Part shown: positions 5,098 to 60,915 of the stretch, piece by piece
Layout of the letters: each line of letters begins with the position of its first letter
Numbering within the stretch: the first letter of the stretch is position 1
NCBI GenBank assembly: GCA_039586365.1
Contig: JBDHKN010000007.1
Span: 30,358 to 94,357 of the forward strand
Reading direction: 5' to 3'
Length of the DNA: 64,000 bases
DNA from: Gemmatimonadota bacterium
Lineage (GTDB): Bacteria; Gemmatimonadota; Gemmatimonadetes; Gemmatimonadales; GWC2-71-9
The notes under the pieces: model-generated
Told to the model about the DNA's origin: nothing
Databases searched by the model: none
What the model saw: only the letters and a program-made list of their open reading frames with translations
Position numbers and translations under genes: made by a program

Positions 5098-7878
5098 ATG
5101 AACGAGGACGATATCGACTCCATCGAGTCACCGACAACATCGCGACGTCGGTACAGCCGCTGGGTGACGGTGTTGACGCATCTCGCCACGCGCAGGACAG
5201 GTTGGACACTGTCGGCCGTGGGCGTGTTGACGTTGTGCAGCATGCTGCTGGCCGAGCGACTCCAACTGAACATGAACTGGACCGATCTGCTCCCGTCGGA
5301 CCATCCCCAGGTACGGCTCTATCGTGACGTCCTCGACCGCTTCGGCGAGACGTCAATCGTGATCGCGCTCGAAGGGGAGCGCGACTCCATCGTCGCCATG
5401 GCTGAGGAGCTGGAGCCCAAGCTTCACGCGCTGGAAAGCTTGCACAACGTGATCGGCAAGATGCCTGTGGAATTCTTGCTCGATCACGGGTTCGTTTTAC
5501 TGAAACCGGAACAGTTCGACCGCACCCTCCGCTCGCTGGAGAACTGGACGGTCCTCGGGTCACTACGAGGCATGAACGACGACTACGAACGGGAGTACAC
5601 CGAGAACGAATCCAACATTAGGCGCGACGAAGTCGAGATCGCGCGCGGAATCCTGGGACTTACCCGTAGCCTCGAGTTGCTTTCCGCTGGGCTGGCTGGC
5701 GAGGCGGGGCCCGAAGTCATGGTCGAAGCGGCTGACGCGCTGTCTATTGGCGATCCTTGGTTGCTTGCACTCGACCGGCAGATGCTGCTCATCGCCGTTA
5801 CCCCAGAAGCTTCGACCACGCAGATAGATGAAACCCTCGCCACGGTGGCCGAGGTCGACGCCGTGATGCAGGAAGTGACAGCCAGTCACCCCGGGGTCTA
5901 CGCCAGCATGACAGGGATGGGGAAGATCAGTCAGGACGAAATGAATAGTGTGGGTGGCTACACCGTACTGCTCTCCATTTTGGCCCTGCTGCTGATCTAC
6001 TTACTCCTTGCCAGAGCGTTCCGCGGTTGGGTCATCCCACTCCTTGCCTTACTTCCGCTGATAGTAGGGATTTTCTGGACCATGGCGGTGCTCCAGATCC
6101 TGTTTGGCGCCCTCAACCTGTTCACCGCCATGATGATGCTCGTGCTGTTGGGACTCGGCATAGACTTCTCCATCCACTTAATCAGTCGCTTCCAGGAGGA
6201 GACCGCCCGGGGCACTGACCTTGAAGCCGGGATCGCAACCACGTTTGCAGGCACAGGTGTCGCGGTCATGATGGGAGCGGCGACAACCGCGATTGCGTTT
6301 CTGACCCTCATGGTGGGTGATACCAAGGGTGTGTTCGAGTTCGGGGTTGCGGCGGGCCTTGGCGTTGTCATCACTCTGATTGCGATCTTCCTCACGCTCC
6401 CAGCGCTACTCGTCCTGCGGTATCGCAGGCTGGAAAAGGCCGGTGCTGTGCAGACCAGCACTGCGTCCTGGAACCACGGCCACAGGTGGATTGGGAACGT
6501 GGTGCGAGCCGGCTGGAAGCACCCGTCAGTCTTCCTCGTAGCGACCGCAATCGTGGTGGCCGCATCGATCTGGGCAATGCGCCACACGGCCTACGAATAC
6601 GACTTCCTTGAGCTGGAGGCCAAAGGACTGCGGTCGGTGGAGTTGCAGCGGCAGATACCGCGACGGTTCGGCACCTCGGATCACAGTGCCTGGCTGGTTG
6701 CCAACTCGATCGAGCGCAGCCGCGAGTTGAAGCAGGAACTCCGCAACTTGCCTGAAGTCGGCGACGTGAACGCCATTAGTGACTTCGTGCCCTCGTCCAC
6801 ACGGTTCGCTGAATACGCCCCCAGACTGGAGCAATTCCGGCGTACGGTTCTCACGCGTGACCGGCCTGCATGGATACCGGGTGACGCCGCACGCCTCTCC
6901 GTCGAGATGGGGCGCCTGTGGGACAACCTAGACCTGATCTCCAACTTGGCCTACACAGCGGGACTCGATCGCATAGTCAGCGTAATCGACGGCATAACCG
7001 GAGTCGATTCTGAAACCGGCGTTACCGACACTTCAGCGCTACTGCCGACACTGTCGCGGCAATTCGCCAACATCACGGACGATTCCACCCTGCGATCGTT
7101 TGCCGAAATGTGGGCAACGCACCTCAAGCAGAATCTCCACCGCATGAGCAATCCCGCGCCCGTGAGCCTTGAGGAGGTACCCGATAACATGCTGCAGAGC
7201 TTCACGCCACGATCAGGCGAAGATTACCTGGTGCACGTGGTGCCGCGGCGCTCGCTCTGGGACCGACCCAGCCTGGAGCGCTTCGCATCTCAGGCCGAGA
7301 GCGTGGACCCCAACGTGATCGGCAGTGAGCAGTTGATGTTGGTCATGATGGACGCAACCCTCGAGGATGGGCGCAACGCGGCATTTCTCGCGCTCGCAGT
7401 GATCGCGCTCCTCCTGATCATTCACTTCCGGGGACCTGTCGGCCTGGTGGCGCTGGTACCACTCGTCGTTGGCACGCTGATCATGCTCGGCATGATGTAC
7501 GCGCTGCATATGAAGTACAACTACATGAATCTCATTGCGACTCCGATCATCCTCGGCATAGGCATCGACGACGGGGTGCATGCCCTGCACCGCTACCGGG
7601 AGGCGGGCGGCGGCAGCCAAGCCGTGGATCGGTCCTTCCAATCGGTCGGTAGGGCAATTCTGTTGACCTCCCTAACGACGATGATCGGGTTCGGCAGCGT
7701 GGCATTCTACGAGATGCGCGGGATGGCGAGCTTCGGTCAGGTCTTGTTCATGGGTGTAGGCGCTTGCTTCCTGGCAACGGTGCTCGTGCTACCCGCCCTA
7801 CTTCGCGTGGTGTTACGGCAGCCCAGAGCCGCGCCAATCAGAGAACCAGGAGAGGAGGTGGGTGGTGCAGCGACATAA
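5098..7878 (+). CDS. MMPL/RND family lipid transporter
   Basis: 926 aa with two hydrophobic TM blocks carrying GLGIDFSIH and GIGIDDGVH motifs, plus two large periplasmic loops. Confidence 0.9.
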   Translation: MNEDDIDSIESPTTSRRRYSRWVTVLTHLATRRTGWTLSAVGVLTLCSMLLAERLQLNMNWTDLLPSDHPQVRLYRDVLDRFGETSIVIALEGERDSIVAMAEELEPKLHALESLHNVIGKMPVEFLLDHGFVLLKPEQFDRTLRSLENWTVLGSLRGMNDDYEREYTENESNIRRDEVEIARGILGLTRSLELLSAGLAGEAGPEVMVEAADALSIGDPWLLALDRQMLLIAVTPEASTTQIDETLATVAEVDAVMQEVTASHPGVYASMTGMGKISQDEMNSVGGYTVLLSILALLLIYLLLARAFRGWVIPLLALLPLIVGIFWTMAVLQILFGALNLFTAMMMLVLLGLGIDFSIHLISRFQEETARGTDLEAGIATTFAGTGVAVMMGAATTAIAFLTLMVGDTKGVFEFGVAAGLGVVITLIAIFLTLPALLVLRYRRLEKAGAVQTSTASWNHGHRWIGNVVRAGWKHPSVFLVATAIVVAASIWAMRHTAYEYDFLELEAKGLRSVELQRQIPRRFGTSDHSAWLVANSIERSRELKQELRNLPEVGDVNAISDFVPSSTRFAEYAPRLEQFRRTVLTRDRPAWIPGDAARLSVEMGRLWDNLDLISNLAYTAGLDRIVSVIDGITGVDSETGVTDTSALLPTLSRQFANITDDSTLRSFAEMWATHLKQNLHRMSNPAPVSLEEVPDNMLQSFTPRSGEDYLVHVVPRRSLWDRPSLERFASQAESVDPNVIGSEQLMLVMMDATLEDGRNAAFLALAVIALLLIIHFRGPVGLVALVPLVVGTLIMLGMMYALHMKYNYMNLIATPIILGIGIDDGVHALHRYREAGGGSQAVDRSFQSVGRAILLTSLTTMIGFGSVAFYEMRGMASFGQVLFMGVGACFLATVLVLPALLRVVLRQPRAAPIREPGEEVGGAAT

Positions 7879-45513: not shown

Positions 45514-46506
45514 TTGCTAACGCATAAGGTGTCCGTGAGTTCATCGATGACGTGGTGTGTGCCGTGGCGGGCTGCGTGTTGCTTCTCGGTGCTGGCCTTT
45601 GGCTGCGGGCAGAACCAGGAGGATGTACAGGTGAATCCACTCCGTGACTTCGGCATCACAGCGAACAACGTGTTCTTTTACTACGATAATCTGGAGCGGG
45701 CCACTGCATTCTACACACAAACTCTGGGTCTCTCCATCGCGGCAGACTACGGCTTTGCCAAGATCCTCCATGTGGCACCAACCTCATACATCACTTTGGT
45801 AGACGCCACCAAGGGAATGCACACTACCGCCGAGCCTAAGACCGTGGCGATCGCTCTGCTAACCGATCAACTGGACGAGTGGTACGAATACCTCGAAGGG
45901 GAGAACGTGGAGATCAAGTTTCAGTATGATCCGGTCGAGGGCCGTCCGCATCACGGTTTCGTCGCGCTCGATCCGGAGGGCTACTACCTAGAGTTCGAAC
46001 GGTTCAATGAGCATCCGGAAAACCAATACCTCATCCCACTGCTGGAAAAGACCGAGACGATTTTCCCAGATCCCGCGATCAGCACTTCAATACCGCCGGG
46101 GCTAGGTTTCAAAGCTACAGTCCTCTGGCTCTACTACAGAGACATGGAGGGCATCCAGCACTTCTTTGAAGAACACCTAGGCCTGAACATGATCGTCGAC
46201 CAGGGCTGGGCCAAAATCTATCAGACATCGCCGTCAGGGTATATCGGACCAGTGGATGCGACCAGAGGGATGCACTCATACACCGAGAGCAAGGCTGTCA
46301 CGGTATCGTTCCTGACCGATGACCTCGATGGCTGGTTTGACTATGTGAAGAGCCACGACGCGTTCGAACTACGACTCGAGGAGATCAGCGAGGACGACGA
46401 ACGGTATCGCGCTTTCGTGGGATACGATCCGGAGGGGTACTATCTGGAATTCGATACGTTTCTCGTCCACGAAGACAACGCTCGGCTGCTCGAGGCACTA
46501 CGGTGA
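45514..46506 (+). CDS. Tandem VOC/glyoxalase-domain lipoprotein
   Basis: Two internal repeats, each ending DPEGYYLEF; LAFGC lipobox; GAGGAG RBS before the TTG. Confidence 0.8.
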   Translation: MLTHKVSVSSSMTWCVPWRAACCFSVLAFGCGQNQEDVQVNPLRDFGITANNVFFYYDNLERATAFYTQTLGLSIAADYGFAKILHVAPTSYITLVDATKGMHTTAEPKTVAIALLTDQLDEWYEYLEGENVEIKFQYDPVEGRPHHGFVALDPEGYYLEFERFNEHPENQYLIPLLEKTETIFPDPAISTSIPPGLGFKATVLWLYYRDMEGIQHFFEEHLGLNMIVDQGWAKIYQTSPSGYIGPVDATRGMHSYTESKAVTVSFLTDDLDGWFDYVKSHDAFELRLEEISEDDERYRAFVGYDPEGYYLEFDTFLVHEDNARLLEALR

Positions 46507-54146: not shown

Positions 54147-55244
54147 ATGCCCAGCCACATTTCGCGCCGGCTCTTCTTCCGTCAAGGCGCCACGCTGGGT
54201 GCGGGCGCCCTGTTGTATCAACCCTCCAACCTGTTCCCGAGCCCAGGTACCACGGTCAACAGGTTCGGCGCCTCCCAGAGAAATACCACACCGTTCATAA
54301 TCACCAGCCACTCGAACGATACCGGGAGAGCTGGGGTAGAGGCGGCCTGGGATATCCTGGCCGGTGGTGGCTCCTCCCTGGACGCAGTCGAGAAGGCCGC
54401 GAACATCATAGAAGTCGATCCGGAGGACACCAGCGTGGGCTATGGAGGTCTTCCCAACGAGCGAGGCGTGGTGCAGCTGGATGCATCGATCATGGATGGT
54501 AAGACCTACAGTGCCGGATCGGTCGCTGCGCTCGAAAACATCAAGACTCCTTCTTCAGTAGCTCGCCTCGTCATGGAGCGGACTGACCATGTGATGTTGG
54601 TGGGTGCCGGAGCTCTTGAGTTCGCCAAATCATGGGGGTTTCAAGAGGAGGATCTACTTACTGACAAGGCCCGTGAGCGTTGGCTCAGGTGGAGAGAGAT
54701 GCACAGCGAACAGGACGACTGGGGACCTCCGGAGCATCTGAAACGGCCGGCTGACCGTGGGTCCTCGAGCAACCAACTGCTCGACTTCACCTATGGAACC
54801 GTCAACGTGCTGGCAGTGGACGCAAGTAGCAATGTCGCGGGAATCACAACCACCAGCGGTCTGAGCTACAAGATCCCAGGTCGGATTGGTGACTCCCCCA
54901 TCATCGGAGCAGGCCTGTATGTCGATAATACAGTGGGTGCAGCAGGAGCCACCGGGCGAGGTGAAGATGTTATCAAATCCTGCGCGTCCTACTATATGGT
55001 CATGCGGATGAAGGATGGACGCTCACCCCAGCAGGCGTGTGAGGACGCCCTGAACATGATCGCTGAGCGGTATCGGGCGGTAGGACTCGACTACCTGCCC
55101 GGGGAGAAGTTCGTAGCCATGAACGTGGAAGGTGCCTACGGCTGCGCCGCCACCAGTGGTCAGCGCCCGCCGCGCATGACCGTGAGGAACCAATCCGGTT
55201 CGAGCATCTACGAAGGCAGCATTGCGTTTCCGTCTGAAGGATAG
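54147..55244 (+). CDS. Asparaginase_2 Ntn-hydrolase (glycosylasparaginase/isoaspartyl peptidase family), Tat signal
   Basis: SRRLFF, SVGYGGLPN, LDASIMDG, nucleophile G|TVN, GRIGDSPIIGAG, TGRGE. Confidence 0.92.
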   Translation: MPSHISRRLFFRQGATLGAGALLYQPSNLFPSPGTTVNRFGASQRNTTPFIITSHSNDTGRAGVEAAWDILAGGGSSLDAVEKAANIIEVDPEDTSVGYGGLPNERGVVQLDASIMDGKTYSAGSVAALENIKTPSSVARLVMERTDHVMLVGAGALEFAKSWGFQEEDLLTDKARERWLRWREMHSEQDDWGPPEHLKRPADRGSSSNQLLDFTYGTVNVLAVDASSNVAGITTTSGLSYKIPGRIGDSPIIGAGLYVDNTVGAAGATGRGEDVIKSCASYYMVMRMKDGRSPQQACEDALNMIAERYRAVGLDYLPGEKFVAMNVEGAYGCAATSGQRPPRMTVRNQSGSSIYEGSIAFPSEG

Positions 55245-55313: not shown

Positions 55314-56774
55314 ATGCGACCGGCCGTCAGGTTCCTAGACGACGAGCTGCTGGAGCGAATCGTCGCTGAGGCACGGAGTCTCCTGAGCGAACTCGGTGTG
55401 GAGATCCACAATCCCGCTGTACTGTCGCTGCTGTCGGATCACGGAGCGCGCGTTGAGGCCGGAAAGAACCGGGCCTTCATATCCGCAGACATCGTGGACA
55501 TGGCGCTGAAAACCGCTCCCAATGGTTTCGCACTCTACGATGTACACGGACGTCAAACGCATGACCTGTCAGGCACCAACGTCCATTTCACGCCGGGCTC
55601 AGCAGCCATAAATGTCCTGGTCTATGACACACAGGACATCCACCCACCCACTACACGGGATTACCTCGAGTATGTAAAGGTCGTTGCTCAGCTGGACCAC
55701 ATAGCTTCTCAGAGCACAGCATTAGTTCCCGCTGACGTTCACCAGAACGTATCCGACAGCTACAGGCTCTTTCTCAGCCTCATGTTCGGCGAGAAGCCGG
55801 TGGTCACCGGGGCGTTCACCATCGACGCACTCAATATCATGAGGGAGCTGCAACTCGTCGTGCGTGGAACCAAGGAGGAGCTTGCAGCGAGACCGCTGAC
55901 AGTGTTTTCCTGTTGTCCGACCGCACCCCTCAAGTGGAGCGACGTCACCTCGCAGAATTTGGTTGACTGCGCCGCATACTCGATTCCGGTGGAGTATGTG
56001 GCGATGCCACTGTCTGGCTTTGTAGCTCCGGTCACACTCGTAGGTACATTGGTGCAGCATACTGCCGAAACCCTGAGCGGGATCGTCATCAGCCAACTAG
56101 CGAACCCCGGCACGCCGGCGTTGTACGGGGGGTCTCCGGCAATCTTTGACGTGCGCTATGAGACCACCCCCATGGGTGCGATTGAGACGATGATGATCGA
56201 CTGCGCCTATAACGAGATCGGCAAGTTCTTGGGGCTGCCTACGCAAGCTTACATGGCTCTGAGTGACGCCAAGCAACTCGATGCGCAGGCTGGGTTGGAG
56301 TCGTCGATGGGCGCTACTTTGGCCGCCCTGGCCGGCATCAACAACGTCTCGGGACCGGGGATGCTCGACTTCGAGAGCTGTTTCAGCCTCGAAAAACTGG
56401 TGGTCGATAACGAGATCTGCGGTATGGCGTTGCGACTCGTGCGGGGAATCGTTCCGCAAGAAGACTTTCCAGCTCTTGAGCGGTTCCAGGAACTACTCGA
56501 AGATCAACATCTGCTGATATCGAAGCACACACGCAAGTATCTCCGGCATGAGCACTATATGCCGGGGATTGCAATTGACCGTGCCAATCGTTCGCGCTGG
56601 CGCGAGGAAGGAAGCAGGACTCTCGACCGGCGAGCGCATGACGAGGTCATGAGGCTCATCGCCTCGCACGACCCCTCTCGACTGCCAGAGGACATCCGGC
56701 GAGAGATGACGAAGCTCATGTTGGATGAAGTGAGGCGCCATGGCATGGGCACGCTCCCCCACGAGAGCTCATGA
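55314..56774 (+). CDS. Trimethylamine methyltransferase (MttB) superfamily, non-pyrrolysine
   Basis: PVTLVGTLVQHTAETLSGIV..QL..PG.P, SDAK..DAQAG.E, GMLDF...S.EKLV.DNE; no in-frame TAG. Confidence 0.92.
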   Translation: MRPAVRFLDDELLERIVAEARSLLSELGVEIHNPAVLSLLSDHGARVEAGKNRAFISADIVDMALKTAPNGFALYDVHGRQTHDLSGTNVHFTPGSAAINVLVYDTQDIHPPTTRDYLEYVKVVAQLDHIASQSTALVPADVHQNVSDSYRLFLSLMFGEKPVVTGAFTIDALNIMRELQLVVRGTKEELAARPLTVFSCCPTAPLKWSDVTSQNLVDCAAYSIPVEYVAMPLSGFVAPVTLVGTLVQHTAETLSGIVISQLANPGTPALYGGSPAIFDVRYETTPMGAIETMMIDCAYNEIGKFLGLPTQAYMALSDAKQLDAQAGLESSMGATLAALAGINNVSGPGMLDFESCFSLEKLVVDNEICGMALRLVRGIVPQEDFPALERFQELLEDQHLLISKHTRKYLRHEHYMPGIAIDRANRSRWREEGSRTLDRRAHDEVMRLIASHDPSRLPEDIRREMTKLMLDEVRRHGMGTLPHESS

Positions 56775-57484
56775 GCGAGATCCTGGAATTATCCGTCGCT
56801 GAGCTCATGCCTGATACGACGGCCGTGTTGGAGAATCAAGGCGTTCCTGCCGGAACAACTGTCAGCGAGCAGATCGAGGATCTCTACTACGTGGCTTGCC
56901 GACTGCTTGCAGAAACGGCAACACCGGTGGGCGTGTTGAGCGAGATCTCCAACTCTGACTTCGCGCATGTGTACTCGGGGGAGGGCAGAAACGAACTACG
57001 AACCCCTGTCGGCGACATGTTCGAGCGAGCAGATCACCTGGCGCTTTTTGCGGTGACGTTGGGAGAACGGCCAGGTCATGAAATCGGGAGCCTTTTCGAA
57101 TCGAACGATTTCGCGCTCGCATGCATGCTTGACTCCACAGCATCGCTGGCGGCCGATAGAGCCGCCGCAGTCACCGAGCGACAATTCAGCGAGGTACTGC
57201 AAACAACCGGGCGCACGACACCGGCGACAGGGGTCCTGCGGTACAGTCCAGGTTATTGCGGCTGGCACATCAGCGGGCAGAAGAAACTCTTCGAGTTCTT
57301 GCGGCCAGAACAGATTGGACTGACACTGAGAGAGAGTTTTCTGATGGAACCGCTGAAATCAGTTTCCGGCGTCATCGTCGCCGGCCATAGAGATATCCAC
57401 AACTTTCCAATCTCTTATAACTGCTGCAGCGATTGCGACACGCGCAGCTGCCGCCGGCGGTTGCGGACGCTGTTTGCTGGTTAG
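56771..57484 (+). CDS. Stand-alone cobalamin-dependent methionine synthase activation (SAM-binding) domain protein
   Basis: FAVTLG, RYSPGYCGW..GQ, IG.TL..SFLM.P.KSVSG; Cys-rich tail CSDCDTRSC. Confidence 0.85.
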   Translation: MSEILELSVAELMPDTTAVLENQGVPAGTTVSEQIEDLYYVACRLLAETATPVGVLSEISNSDFAHVYSGEGRNELRTPVGDMFERADHLALFAVTLGERPGHEIGSLFESNDFALACMLDSTASLAADRAAAVTERQFSEVLQTTGRTTPATGVLRYSPGYCGWHISGQKKLFEFLRPEQIGLTLRESFLMEPLKSVSGVIVAGHRDIHNFPISYNCCSDCDTRSCRRRLRTLFAG

Positions 57485-57487
57485 AGT

Positions 57488-58150
57488 GTGAACCAAGTAC
57501 GGAGTCTAAACATGGATCTTCTTGCCGAGATCGCCAACGGCGTGATCAACGGAGATGACGAACGGATTGCACGAATGACCCGAAAGGTAATTGACCAAGG
57601 TACCTCGCCAAAAACCATATTGGATGACGGGCTCATCGCCGGAATGAACGTGGTGGGGGAACGATTCAAGGCGCACACTATCTTCCTGCCGGACGTGCTC
57701 CTTGCGGCCAAGGCGATGTATGCGGGCCTGGATCTGCTGAAGCCCCTGTTGATCGAACAAGGATTCCCTCCGATGGGCAGGGTGGTCATCGGTTCGGTGC
57801 GGGGAGACCTACATGACATCGGCAAGAACCTGGTCAGCATAATGTTGAAGGGGGCTGGGTTTGAGATCATCGACTTGGGCAACGACGTTCCACCAGAGAC
57901 AATGGTTGAGTCAGCCGTAAGAAACGAAGCCACTGTCATCGGTATGTCAGCCCTGCTCACCACGACCATGCCAGTGATGGGTCAGGTCGTTGAGATGCTG
58001 TCTCAGAAAGGGTTAACCGGCAAGATCAGGACTATCGTTGGTGGTGCACCCGTGAGTAGCGAGTTTGCCCGGGAAATCGGCGCCGACGCATATGGCTTTG
58101 ACGCTGCAAATGCGGTGGACCGAGTTAAGAGTCTCTTCAACGTTGTCTGA
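57488..58150 (+). CDS. Cognate corrinoid (B12-binding) protein
   Basis: Cap domain GLIAGM..VG..F, DLHDIGKN (DxHxxG), SALLTTTM, VGGAP. Start at 57488 (GTG) or 57512 (ATG). Confidence 0.93.
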   Translation: MNQVRSLNMDLLAEIANGVINGDDERIARMTRKVIDQGTSPKTILDDGLIAGMNVVGERFKAHTIFLPDVLLAAKAMYAGLDLLKPLLIEQGFPPMGRVVIGSVRGDLHDIGKNLVSIMLKGAGFEIIDLGNDVPPETMVESAVRNEATVIGMSALLTTTMPVMGQVVEMLSQKGLTGKIRTIVGGAPVSSEFAREIGADAYGFDAANAVDRVKSLFNVV

Positions 58151-59033
58151 CAGAACACCGCTGGACCAGCGACTCGCCTCCGGTGAGATACTGGTAGCTG
58201 ACGGCGCAATGGGCACTCTGCTGTTCGAGAGGGGCCTGGACCCGGGTGCGTGCCCTGAATCCATCACACTTGCCCATCCGGAGGTTCTCGAGGAAATCGC
58301 GCGCCTCTACTTGGAAGCCGGTGCAGACATAATCGGGACCAACACCTTCGGCGGCTGCCCCCTGAAGCTAGCTGCCTACGGGCTCGCGGACAGCACCAAC
58401 GAGATCAACACACGCGCTGTAACCGCTGTCCGCAACGCGGTGGAGGACCGCGCATACGTGGCCGGGTCCGTTGGTCCCTGCGGCAAGCTGCTCACACCGT
58501 ACGGCGATGCCAAGCCGGAGGAAGTGTACGGGAGTTTTTTGAGGCAGGTTGAGAGCCTCATTGCCGCCGGAGTTGACTGCATTTGCGTTGAGACCATGAT
58601 CGATCTCACGGAGGCGAAACTGGCTGTGCGAGCCGTAAAGGATGTTTCCCCTCGGACACCGGTCACTGCCAGCATGACGTTCGATGCCACGCCTAACGGG
58701 TTCTTCACGATCATGGGAGTGAGCGTTGCGGACGCCGTAGCCGGACTCACCGAAGTAGGGGCCGACGCGATCGGGTCAAACTGTGGTAACGGCAGCGAAA
58801 AGATGGTTGAGATCGCGCGAACCTTCCGGAGCGTCAGCCAGCTCCCTCTCACTATTCAGCCCAACGCGGGCCTTCCTCACATAACCAACGGCAAAGCGGT
58901 GTATGACGAGACGCCCACATTCATGGCCGAGCAGGCGAGGGCGCTAATTTCGATCGGCGTATCAATCATCGGTGGGTGTTGTGGGACCACGCCGGAACAT
59001 GTCGCCACACTAAGAGCGATGATTGACGAATGA
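58143..59033 (+). CDS. Homocysteine S-methyltransferase (MetH N-terminal Hcy-binding domain, stand-alone)
   Basis: DGAMGT, AGAD.I.TNTF, GS.GP, ETM.D, Zn ligands GSNCG and GGCCGT. Likely TTG start at 58143, overlapping the corrinoid gene stop. Confidence 0.92.
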   Translation: MSDRTPLDQRLASGEILVADGAMGTLLFERGLDPGACPESITLAHPEVLEEIARLYLEAGADIIGTNTFGGCPLKLAAYGLADSTNEINTRAVTAVRNAVEDRAYVAGSVGPCGKLLTPYGDAKPEEVYGSFLRQVESLIAAGVDCICVETMIDLTEAKLAVRAVKDVSPRTPVTASMTFDATPNGFFTIMGVSVADAVAGLTEVGADAIGSNCGNGSEKMVEIARTFRSVSQLPLTIQPNAGLPHITNGKAVYDETPTFMAEQARALISIGVSIIGGCCGTTPEHVATLRAMIDE

Positions 59034-59049: not shown

Positions 59050-60735
59050 TCAGGTCCGACGCAGCACCATGCCAGGACGCACACCCGTGTGGTGACCCTC
59101 GTCGACCACAAGTTTGCCGTTGACGAGCACGTACCGGACTCCGACTGGGTACTGGTGCGGGTCATCGAACGTCGCCTGGTCCCTTACCTCTGCGGCGTCA
59201 AACACCACTAGGTCAGCCTTGCTACCGCGGGCAATGCGACCACGGTCCCGTAATCCCACGTGGTCAGCAGCCATACTCGTCATCTTCTTAATTGCCGTGG
59301 TCAGATCGAAGATCTTGCGTTCGCGACAATAATGACCGAGCACGCGAGGACAGGTTCCGTAAGAGCGTGGGTGTGGCCTGGTCTCGGCTGCCCTACCAGT
59401 TGGCGCCATGCTCGATCCGTCAGAGCCAATCATGACCAGGGGATGGGCGAGCACGAGCTCAACGTTCTCCGGACTCATCCCGTGTCCGACTATGCTCACG
59501 CGCCCCTCCTCCTCCGACACCAACCTGAGGGCAGCATCAACCGGATCGAGATCCCATTCAGCACCAAGCTGCACCAGGTCCATGCCGACTAGGTGACGGT
59601 TCTTCTCTGAGCGCGTCGAGGCGAGCACGATCAGATCGTAGTCCCCGGGATCGACCGCGATTTGGGAACTGTACGCTTCCCGAATCCGCGACCGGTCTGC
59701 AGGGTCCTCGAGTCGCTTAGCGAGCTGTGGCCACCCCCCTTCCAGCGCCCAGGAGGGCATGAAGATCGTCAGCCCGGTGGAATAGGCCGTGTAAGGATAG
59801 GCGTCAGCCATCACATCGACACCGTCACTGCGGGCCGCTTCGATTAGGTCCAGCGCAGCACGCTGCTTGGCCCAGTTTGGCCTTCCCGCGGCCTTCAGAT
59901 GCGAGATCTCGACCCGCACACCGGCATCCCGCCCCACCTGAATTGCTTCGTGTACCGCAGCCAGCAGATTCGCTTCTTCGTTCCGAATATGGGAGGCATA
60001 GAGGCCACCGCGCCGCGCCACAAGCCGCGCTAGTGCAACGATCTCCGCCGTGGGCGTGTATCGTCCCGGCGTATACTCAAGGCCGGTCGAAAGACCAAAA
60101 GCACCCTGGTCGAGACCTTCCTCAACAGCCCGCAATACGCTCGTCAATTCGCCTTGGGACAGACCCCGGTTCTCGAGCCCGACAGCGTTTTCCCTCACCG
60201 TACCCTGACCCAGGAGCATTGCCTGATTGGTGGCAACACCGATCTGCTCCAGCGTCTGGTAATAGGAGTCGACTCCTGTCCACTCCACATAAACACCATG
60301 GTCTTCCAGCACTTCAGCGCGAAACTCCTCTGCACTCGGTCCCTCCAGGGGAGCAGCGGAAGAGCCACAATTCCCGGTAACCTCGGTAGTGATCCCTTGG
60401 CGCACCCGACTGTCGGCACTGGGATAGGCGAAGATACTCGAGTCGGAGTGGGTGTGAACGTCGATGAAACCAGGTGCCACGTAGAAATCTGCGGCGTCCA
60501 GTGCGCGCCTGCCCTGCTCAGGAGCGATCGAGCCGACTGCAGCAATGGTATCACCGATGATACCCACGTCCACCCGCATTGCCGGGCCACCGGTACCGTC
60601 CAGCACATTCCCGTTCACGACGACCACATCGAAACTAGGCGACGGTAGGATACGAGATACCGGGTACATAGCTACACCCAGGGTCGCTGACACTCCTGTA
60701 CTCAGAAAGTCCCGGCGACTGACTTCACGCCTCAT
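59050..60735 (-). CDS. N-acyl-D-amino-acid deacylase (D-aminoacylase), Tat signal
   Basis: SRRDFL, PGFIDVHTHSD, GNCG, HIRNE, SHLK, GSDG, HPRSYGT. Confidence 0.92.
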   Translation of the reverse strand: MRREVSRRDFLSTGVSATLGVAMYPVSRILPSPSFDVVVVNGNVLDGTGGPAMRVDVGIIGDTIAAVGSIAPEQGRRALDAADFYVAPGFIDVHTHSDSSIFAYPSADSRVRQGITTEVTGNCGSSAAPLEGPSAEEFRAEVLEDHGVYVEWTGVDSYYQTLEQIGVATNQAMLLGQGTVRENAVGLENRGLSQGELTSVLRAVEEGLDQGAFGLSTGLEYTPGRYTPTAEIVALARLVARRGGLYASHIRNEEANLLAAVHEAIQVGRDAGVRVEISHLKAAGRPNWAKQRAALDLIEAARSDGVDVMADAYPYTAYSTGLTIFMPSWALEGGWPQLAKRLEDPADRSRIREAYSSQIAVDPGDYDLIVLASTRSEKNRHLVGMDLVQLGAEWDLDPVDAALRLVSEEEGRVSIVGHGMSPENVELVLAHPLVMIGSDGSSMAPTGRAAETRPHPRSYGTCPRVLGHYCRERKIFDLTTAIKKMTSMAADHVGLRDRGRIARGSKADLVVFDAAEVRDQATFDDPHQYPVGVRYVLVNGKLVVDEGHHTGVRPGMVLRRT

Positions 60736-60915
60736 AAACCCTCCACGCATGATTTGAAGAGGCTCAAATCAGCGGGCAGCGGTCAGCTGCTGCTCTCCGC
60801 TCCCCACTTTCCACTCACGTAACAGGCCGCTCCAGGATTGCCCGCAGTCGACTCATCAAGGTCGAGAATTGACGAGCGTAGAGACTCCAACTTGCCTCCA
60901 GCGGCCAAGGTAGGT

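Follow-up and report, generated by a model that had tools for sequence, protein, structure and literature searches.

The characterised members of the MttB methyltransferase superfamily that do not contain pyrrolysine (Pyl) use acidic quaternary amines as substrates (PMC13080624). Mutagenesis and structure have shown that Y97, R312, H348 and F356 of MtgB bind betaine; MtgB with the R312L mutation is inactive, and every MttB member whose function is known is reported to retain R312 (PMC13080624). In Pyl-MttB, Gly110 and Tyr364 act as catalytic helpers (PMC9842639). Williams et al. (2022, Environ Microbiol 24:2576, PMC9324843) found in Ca. Electryoneota and other metagenome-assembled genomes (MAGs) a gene cluster for which they hypothesised corrinoid-dependent methionine synthesis, naming no donor. 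(The papers cited here were available in part, and our statements about them refer to those parts.) Here we describe the same cluster in a window of 64,000 nucleotides (nt), the whole stretch of DNA that was analysed, from a Gemmatimonadota bacterium (assembly GCA_039586365.1, contig JBDHKN010000007.1, positions 30,358 to 94,357). The cluster and the hypothesis are already published and the window is a further example; because the idea has been in print since 2022, the locus adds an example and not a concept. We consider it likely that this conserved cassette is a cobalamin-dependent methionine synthase in separate parts, using a donor other than folate that is unlikely to be a betaine.

The cassette consists of four genes on the + strand. 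The mttB-like gene (55314..56774) encodes a non-pyrrolysine MttB-superfamily methyltransferase of 486 amino acids (aa; PF06253), a predicted donor:corrinoid methyltransferase. It shares an ATGA overlap with act (56771..57484), which encodes a stand-alone MetH-type activation (AdoMet) domain of 237 aa (PF02965). The corrinoid protein gene (cob, 57512..58150) encodes a cobalamin-binding cap and Rossmann domain in 212 aa (PF02607 and PF02310), and hcy (58143..59033) encodes a stand-alone Zn-type homocysteine (Hcy) S-methyltransferase module of 296 aa (PF02574) with an inferred TTG start. Profile searches confirmed these families, and all four open reading frames lie where an original prediction, made from the sequence alone, had placed them. 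Its claim of tight coupling held for the mttB/act overlap and probably does not hold for the next junction. For the corrinoid gene the most likely start is ATG 57512, which has GGAG upstream and gives 212 aa, the commonest homologue length; act would then be followed by a gap of 27 nt and not 3 nt. An alternative start at GTG 57488 would give 220 aa. The most likely start of hcy, TTG 58143, overlaps the corrinoid stop by 8 nt. Also upheld was the claim that three of the four MetH modules are present as separate proteins, and no methyl-tetrahydrofolate (methyl-THF)-binding (pterin) module was found inside the cassette.

The methyl-transferring modules resemble known proteins in both fold and motifs. 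The MttB-like protein matched PF06253 with E 5.5e-75 (252.7 bits, cut-off 25), and the top ten Foldseek matches of its model were all MtgB/MttB. Scores of 196 bits with Methanosarcina barkeri MttB and 191 bits with Desulfitobacterium hafniense MtgB put it at about the same distance from both, and it scored 351.5 bits against TIGR02369 (Pyl-MttB), below the cut-off of 525. There is no in-frame TAG in its gene, and Leu316 aligns with Pyl334. The corrinoid protein contains the cobalamin motif D-L-H-D-I-G (DxHxxG) with H109 (220-aa numbering), and this histidine is invariant in 71/71 corrinoid proteins. It is MtgC/MttC-like, scoring under the equivalog cut-offs, and has PDB matches 1y80 and 7xcn_M. 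The Hcy methyltransferase matched PF02574 with E 2e-69 and contains N241, E150, NTFG and the Zn cysteines C214, C279 and C280; these Zn ligands are invariant in 54/54 Hcy modules. Its best PDB match is the N-terminal part of Thermotoga maritima MetH (1q7m, E 5e-52).

The activation protein matched PF02965 with E 7e-10. Its model has a predicted local distance difference test score (pLDDT) of 95 and matches the folds of T. maritima TM0269 (1j6r, E 1.5e-12) and of MetH activation domains; ESM Atlas matches were PF02965 clusters only. Its PGY motif, with the tyrosine (Y162) kept, aligns in a profile match with the PGY of the genome's own MetH, and according to PMC10567725 this tyrosine is universally conserved and matters for reactivation. 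The protein also contains four cysteines, C163 beside the PGY tyrosine and the three in C219-x2-C222-x4-C227-x2-R230, which are found in 64-65/65 sequences. They also occur in 34/34 sequences, among them a 22% homologue (L117:11107-11793) whose MttB cluster is linked to a pterin gene; the motif is thus a trait of the wider family and is not specific for the cassette. The four cysteines suggest a Zn or Fe-S site, and the proteins carrying them may form a subfamily of PF02965 that binds a metal or an Fe-S cluster. It is a guess that this site acts as an electron relay supplying the reactivating electron. We found no literature on a four-cysteine activation protein in a search that left most subscription journals outside, and it may be an undescribed detail.

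We compared the neighbourhoods of the best 80 of at least 594 genome matches, which cover 14 phylum-level groups. At the 56 informative loci, with at least 3.5 kb downstream, mttB is followed by act-cob-hcy in 43, cob-hcy in 4, cob only in 4, act-cob in 3, act only in 1 and none of them in 1; hcy is thus present in 47/56. The ATGA overlap between mttB and act occurs in 46/67 loci. Pairwise distances of the four proteins correlate with r 0.40-0.61 over 50 loci, whose kinship makes them non-independent. Close orthologues (75-78%) are present in 5/7 genomes of the same genus, and the distribution further out is patchy (13/61 genomes with any match). No pterin methyltransferase was found in the 80 genome loci with a query that detected AcsE-like genes in L117-L119, and none was found in 80 metagenome loci picked by likeness to a paralogue, many of them on short contigs and 34/80 showing an Hcy gene. 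The required and conserved pterin partner that would be at odds with the original prediction was not found in these 160 related loci. No other conserved neighbour pointing to a donor was found beyond the four genes, and there is no linked transporter. At L096:11422-13338, the N-terminus of the activation protein is in frame with PriA helicase, and cob and hcy are missing; this is probably a misassembly or rearrangement.

The presence of other folate, reactivation and methionine routes was checked in 50 cassette genomes, that is, in 50 of the 80 loci, selected for an adjacent Hcy gene, 49 of them with all four genes. These genomes are related MAGs or a single-amplified genome (SAG) of unstated completeness, and some single-scaffold ones have N gaps. 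A MetH-type pterin domain, recognised by frame length and score with three checked, is found in 33/50. Dihydropteroate synthase (DHPS) is the only PF00809 match in 13/50 (all 13 checked), and 4/50 have no PF00809 match. Stand-alone pterin methyltransferases are found in 3/50, all in other MttB clusters, and MtgA/MtrH scored over the cut-off in 0/50. The MetE family is present in 10/50, AhcY in 46/50 and a RACE (RamA-type) activator in 6/50. One of these six genomes (G110) has a cassette without the activation gene (L073), the lone case of possible substitution. Ten of the 50 genomes, all incomplete, have no detected MetH, MetE or other methyl-folate module; AhcY is present in eight of these ten. 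MetF was undetected in nine of the ten, supporting that the donor is other than methyl-THF. The cassette would be the only recognisable route in some of these relatives.

The host genome is 86% complete, and the following absences refer to its assembly. On another contig it encodes a full-length MetH of 1239 aa followed by a YitJ-like fusion of Hcy methyltransferase and MetF; at L009:9060-14611, a full metH overlaps a YitJ-like fusion gene of this kind. The only PF00809 matches are DHPS and the full-length MetH. There are four PF02574 proteins, counting the cassette and the C35 gene, and outside the cassette is a further stand-alone Hcy methyltransferase, which we take to be MmuM-like. S-adenosylhomocysteine (SAH) hydrolase is present in two copies, and an OpuAC-family binding protein is also present. 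We did not find MtgA/MtrH, BCCT, a second MttB or a second stand-alone corrinoid protein. Among the genes that the original prediction named as bearing on the pathway, metH was found, and metE, a stand-alone (MtgD-like) pterin methyltransferase and RACE/RamA were not. Since a full MetH and the YitJ-like fusion are present, the cassette would be supplementary in this host, an extra route and not its main methionine synthase.

The AlphaFold model of the MttB-like protein is unfit for examining the pocket (mean pLDDT 62.7, with residues 272-429 mostly below 50) and was therefore used for the fold only. The pocket was read from alignments with PDB 7xcl and 9yce, the chain numbering of 9yce being offset by 2. 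The clade signature is S96, C201, E227, S274, Q311, Y313, L316 and E354. In two row sets, Q311, Y313, C201 and E227 are invariant (81/81 and 82/82), and E354 is present in 81/81 and 76/82. In the alignment, Y97, R312, H348 and F356 of MtgB correspond to S96, Q311, a gap or S346, and E354, and these replacements run throughout the clade. The Pyl-MttB helpers Gly110 and Tyr364 are also substituted, by Ser96 and Ser346. Conservation is very high, with a mean identity of 71%, and in the tree the window protein clusters with 13 rows from Gemmatimonadota (support 92). We considered and abandoned a Cys-Cys zinc site in the pocket: although C201 and E227 do not vary, C200 is Val or Ala in 7/163 aligned rows.

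Carboxylated betaines, glycine betaine among them, had been proposed as candidate donors. The replacement of all four MtgB residues does not support this. In addition, OpuAC is found in 14/50 and BCCT in 1/50 cassette genomes, with neither in 36/50. Taken together, the pocket and the missing transporters make an imported betaine an unlikely donor. An acidic E354 at the position of the MtgB cation-pi aromatic, together with the lack of the carboxylate-binding Arg, would fit a donor that is cationic or neutral and has no carboxylate. Our guess from these residues is a small or internally made methyl compound of this type, which may be methylamine-, choline- or sulfonium-like.

From the gene content, order, motifs and co-occurrence described above, we infer the following chemistry. 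The MttB-like barrel would bind the donor and methylate cob(I) on the corrinoid protein. The methyl-corrinoid would then dock on the Zn homocysteine module to form methionine. Oxidised cob(II) would be repaired by S-adenosylmethionine (SAM)-dependent reductive methylation on the activation protein, the electron possibly passing through the four-cysteine site. The homocysteine would likely be supplied by SAH hydrolase, so that no methyl-THF would be needed for the cassette to close the SAM cycle. The conserved gene order, the lack of a linked pterin gene, the rarity of RACE and the genomes that keep the cassette without MetH, MetE and MetF support the transfer that the original prediction envisaged, directly from donor to corrinoid to homocysteine without folate and with MetH-type reactivation. 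A bolder version is tentative and in our judgement rather doubtful: that the cassette is a third type of B12 methionine synthase, complete in itself, in at least 14 phylum-level groups of sediment bacteria, in which a new MttB specificity class with a Q311/Y313/E354 pocket takes a carboxylate-free donor, perhaps a simple methylamine without the use of pyrrolysine, and in which the activation protein has its own four-cysteine Fe-S centre, so that no folate, RamA/RACE or corrinoid-docked flavodoxin is needed.

Several observations weigh against a folate-free split methionine synthase. The Arg preceding SPGY is present in only 42/65 activation proteins, so SAM binding is not assured. Nine of the 56 informative loci have no adjacent hcy; their genomes contain no close hcy orthologue, and seven of the nine have only a 36-43% relative in a frame of 291-475 aa. 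About nine metagenome loci contain a clade mttB with no partner on the available DNA, and the nested clade paralogue at L119 adjoins a pterin methyltransferase, metF and Pyl-MtbB. Because the genomes are incomplete MAGs or a SAG, absences may be assembly gaps. The single MetF match of genome G075 falls within a frame of 645 aa, resembling the YitJ fusion next to metH in the host, so the metH of G075 may sit in a gap. Finally, MetH in 33/50 genomes and in the host means that the cassette is often redundant.

Two other readings involve folate. The corrinoid protein may be a shared hub, as in Ruegeria MtgBCDE, from which methyl groups go mainly to tetrahydrofolate through a pterin module acting in trans, with the Hcy module as a side branch. 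The MtgBCDE precedent (PMC12478193), the frequent MetH pterin domain (33/50) and the AcsE-like gene and metF beside the L119 paralogue agree with such a hub. However, bacteria with MtgBCD often have an unlinked mtgE and RamA, whereas hcy is linked here and RACE is rare; with stand-alone pterin methyltransferases in only 3/50 genomes, in other MttB clusters, and MtgA in 0/50, we regard the hub as quite improbable. Alternatively, the MttB-like barrel could be a non-homologous replacement of the folate module that itself uses methyl-THF or a related pterin, leaving the synthesis folate-dependent. This is very improbable, as MetF was not found in nine of the ten genomes that rely on the cassette, a metF-like gene flanks only 1/80 loci, and no MttB member using folate was found in the available parts of the literature examined, although a 71% mean identity would suit an internal substrate found universally, MttB shares the TIM-barrel fold with the MetH folate domain (PMC9842639), and DHPS is present in 44/50 genomes.

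The two ends of the transfer could also differ from our assignment. At the donor end, a carboxylated betaine (glycine betaine, carnitine, proline betaine or butyrobetaine) would agree with the acidic quaternary amines used by all characterised non-Pyl MttB members (PMC13080624) and with the OpuAC-family protein of the host. But the four betaine residues are replaced, including the Arg that is essential in MtgB (Q311 here in 81/81 and 82/82 rows), no transporter is linked, and 36/50 genomes have neither OpuAC nor BCCT; such a donor is highly improbable. At the acceptor end, the methyl group may go to another thiol or a selenol, or the cassette may mainly clear a methylated compound with methionine as an incidental product. 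Selenide and thiols other than homocysteine can serve Zn-thiol methyltransferases as acceptors (Mlp clusters, PMC10418091), MetH is already available in most hosts, and a UroD-family gene directly follows the clade mttB in L179 and L183. Against this, the acceptor module, which retains NTFG, E150 and N241, is nearest to the Hcy domain of MetH, AhcY is present in 8/10 genomes without MetH and MetE, and a UroD homologue occurs in only 4/50 genomes. We consider another acceptor or purpose improbable, and the split methionine synthase with a non-folate donor remains our preferred reading.

The paralogues and neighbours of the clade gave further observations. L119 (229-12558; G072:C223) contains a corrinoid gene, an IclR-like regulator, an AcsE-like pterin methyltransferase, metF and a TAG-truncated dimethylamine methyltransferase, with pyl-like genes read from sequence. 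Its bin is titled Gemmatimonadota, and the contig may be foreign to the bin. The L119 paralogue (62%) carries S274A and E354I, and the same pair is found in L121, L141, L176 and L177, beside which no Hcy gene was seen on the available DNA. The L119 neighbourhood is a hint toward methylamines as donor. Two MttB paralogues lie in tandem at L112:7989-11163 (26% and 51% to the protein of the window), and the 19 kb available there contain no corrinoid gene. A UroD-family protein (L111:1417-2388; G000:C49) without an obvious His-x-Cys zinc motif is 38% identical to the gene directly after the clade mttB in L179 (4656-5630) and L183; the protein on contig C49 was rejected as a required partner since it occurs in only 4/50 genomes. 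In L070, another UroD-family gene (5131-6171) precedes the cassette by about 4 kb.

Within the window, the cassette is flanked by genes for an asparaginase-2-family protein (54147-55244) and an amidohydrolase (59050-60750), both with twin-arginine-like N-termini; neither is conserved alongside the cassette. The upstream asparaginase-family gene was dropped as a cassette member, being near the cassette in 0/80 genome and 1/80 metagenome loci. A two-domain glyoxalase-family protein with a lipoprotein-like N-terminus is encoded at 45514-46506. A scan for promoters and terminators gave signals at chance level only, and no plasmid match was found at E 1e-60.

If our reading is true, many uncultured sediment heterotrophs would remethylate homocysteine without folate, from an environmental or internal methyl compound. 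It would explain how genomes lacking MetH, MetE and MetF close the SAM cycle, and it would assign a large MttB clade often labelled 'trimethylamine methyltransferase'. To the published hypothesis the locus adds testable detail, namely that betaines are unlikely donors and that the activation protein may hold a metal centre. We found no biochemical test of the cassette in the literature searched, most subscription journals being outside the search; PMC13222342 and PMC12484752 are, in the parts available, unrelated to it.

The cluster of Williams et al. (PMC9324843) has the same four genes in the same order, with lengths of 1458-1461 nt for mttB, 711-765 for act, 639-645 for the corrinoid gene and 876-891 for hcy, compared with 1461, 714, 639 and 891 nt in the window. 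The pterin module is missing and a full MetH co-occurs there too, and the host groups overlap (WOR-3, Zixibacteria, Marinimicrobia, Stahlbacteria), whereas our host is a Gemmatimonadota bacterium. With order, lengths and host groups matching, the window MttB may belong to the same clade as the Electryoneota proteins. The available text of that paper contains no pocket analysis, four-cysteine motif or genome-wide test of MetF and pterin partners. Methanosarcina barkeri Pyl-MttB/MttC (PMC9842639) shares the fold, a similar score and a loop without the MtgB histidine, but Pyl334, Tyr364 and Gly110 are Leu316, Ser346 and Ser96 in the window protein. The Hcy and activation modules find their best structural matches in T. 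maritima MetH (1q7m) and the stand-alone TM0269 (1j6r); however, the folate domain is kept in T. maritima, and TM0269 has Asp at the C163 position and its alignment ends before the C-terminal Cys triad. The D. hafniense MtgB/MtgC/MtgA system (PMC13080624) shares a non-pyrrolysine MttB fold and a cognate corrinoid protein, and differs from the cassette, which has the four betaine residues replaced, an Hcy-type acceptor in place of MtgA and no RamA. In the Ruegeria pomeroyi MtgBCDE system (PMC12478193) and the Phaeobacter inhibens split MetH (PMC5764234), the corrinoid and Hcy modules are likewise separate, and an MttB-family methyltransferase shares them. These systems need the pterin protein MtgD, use RamA and DUF1638, have no PF02965 protein, and their mtgE is often unlinked. 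Thus the tested relative MtgBCDE, which requires a pterin module and RamA, differs from the window cassette, which has no pterin gene, a PF02965 activation protein and a linked Hcy gene.

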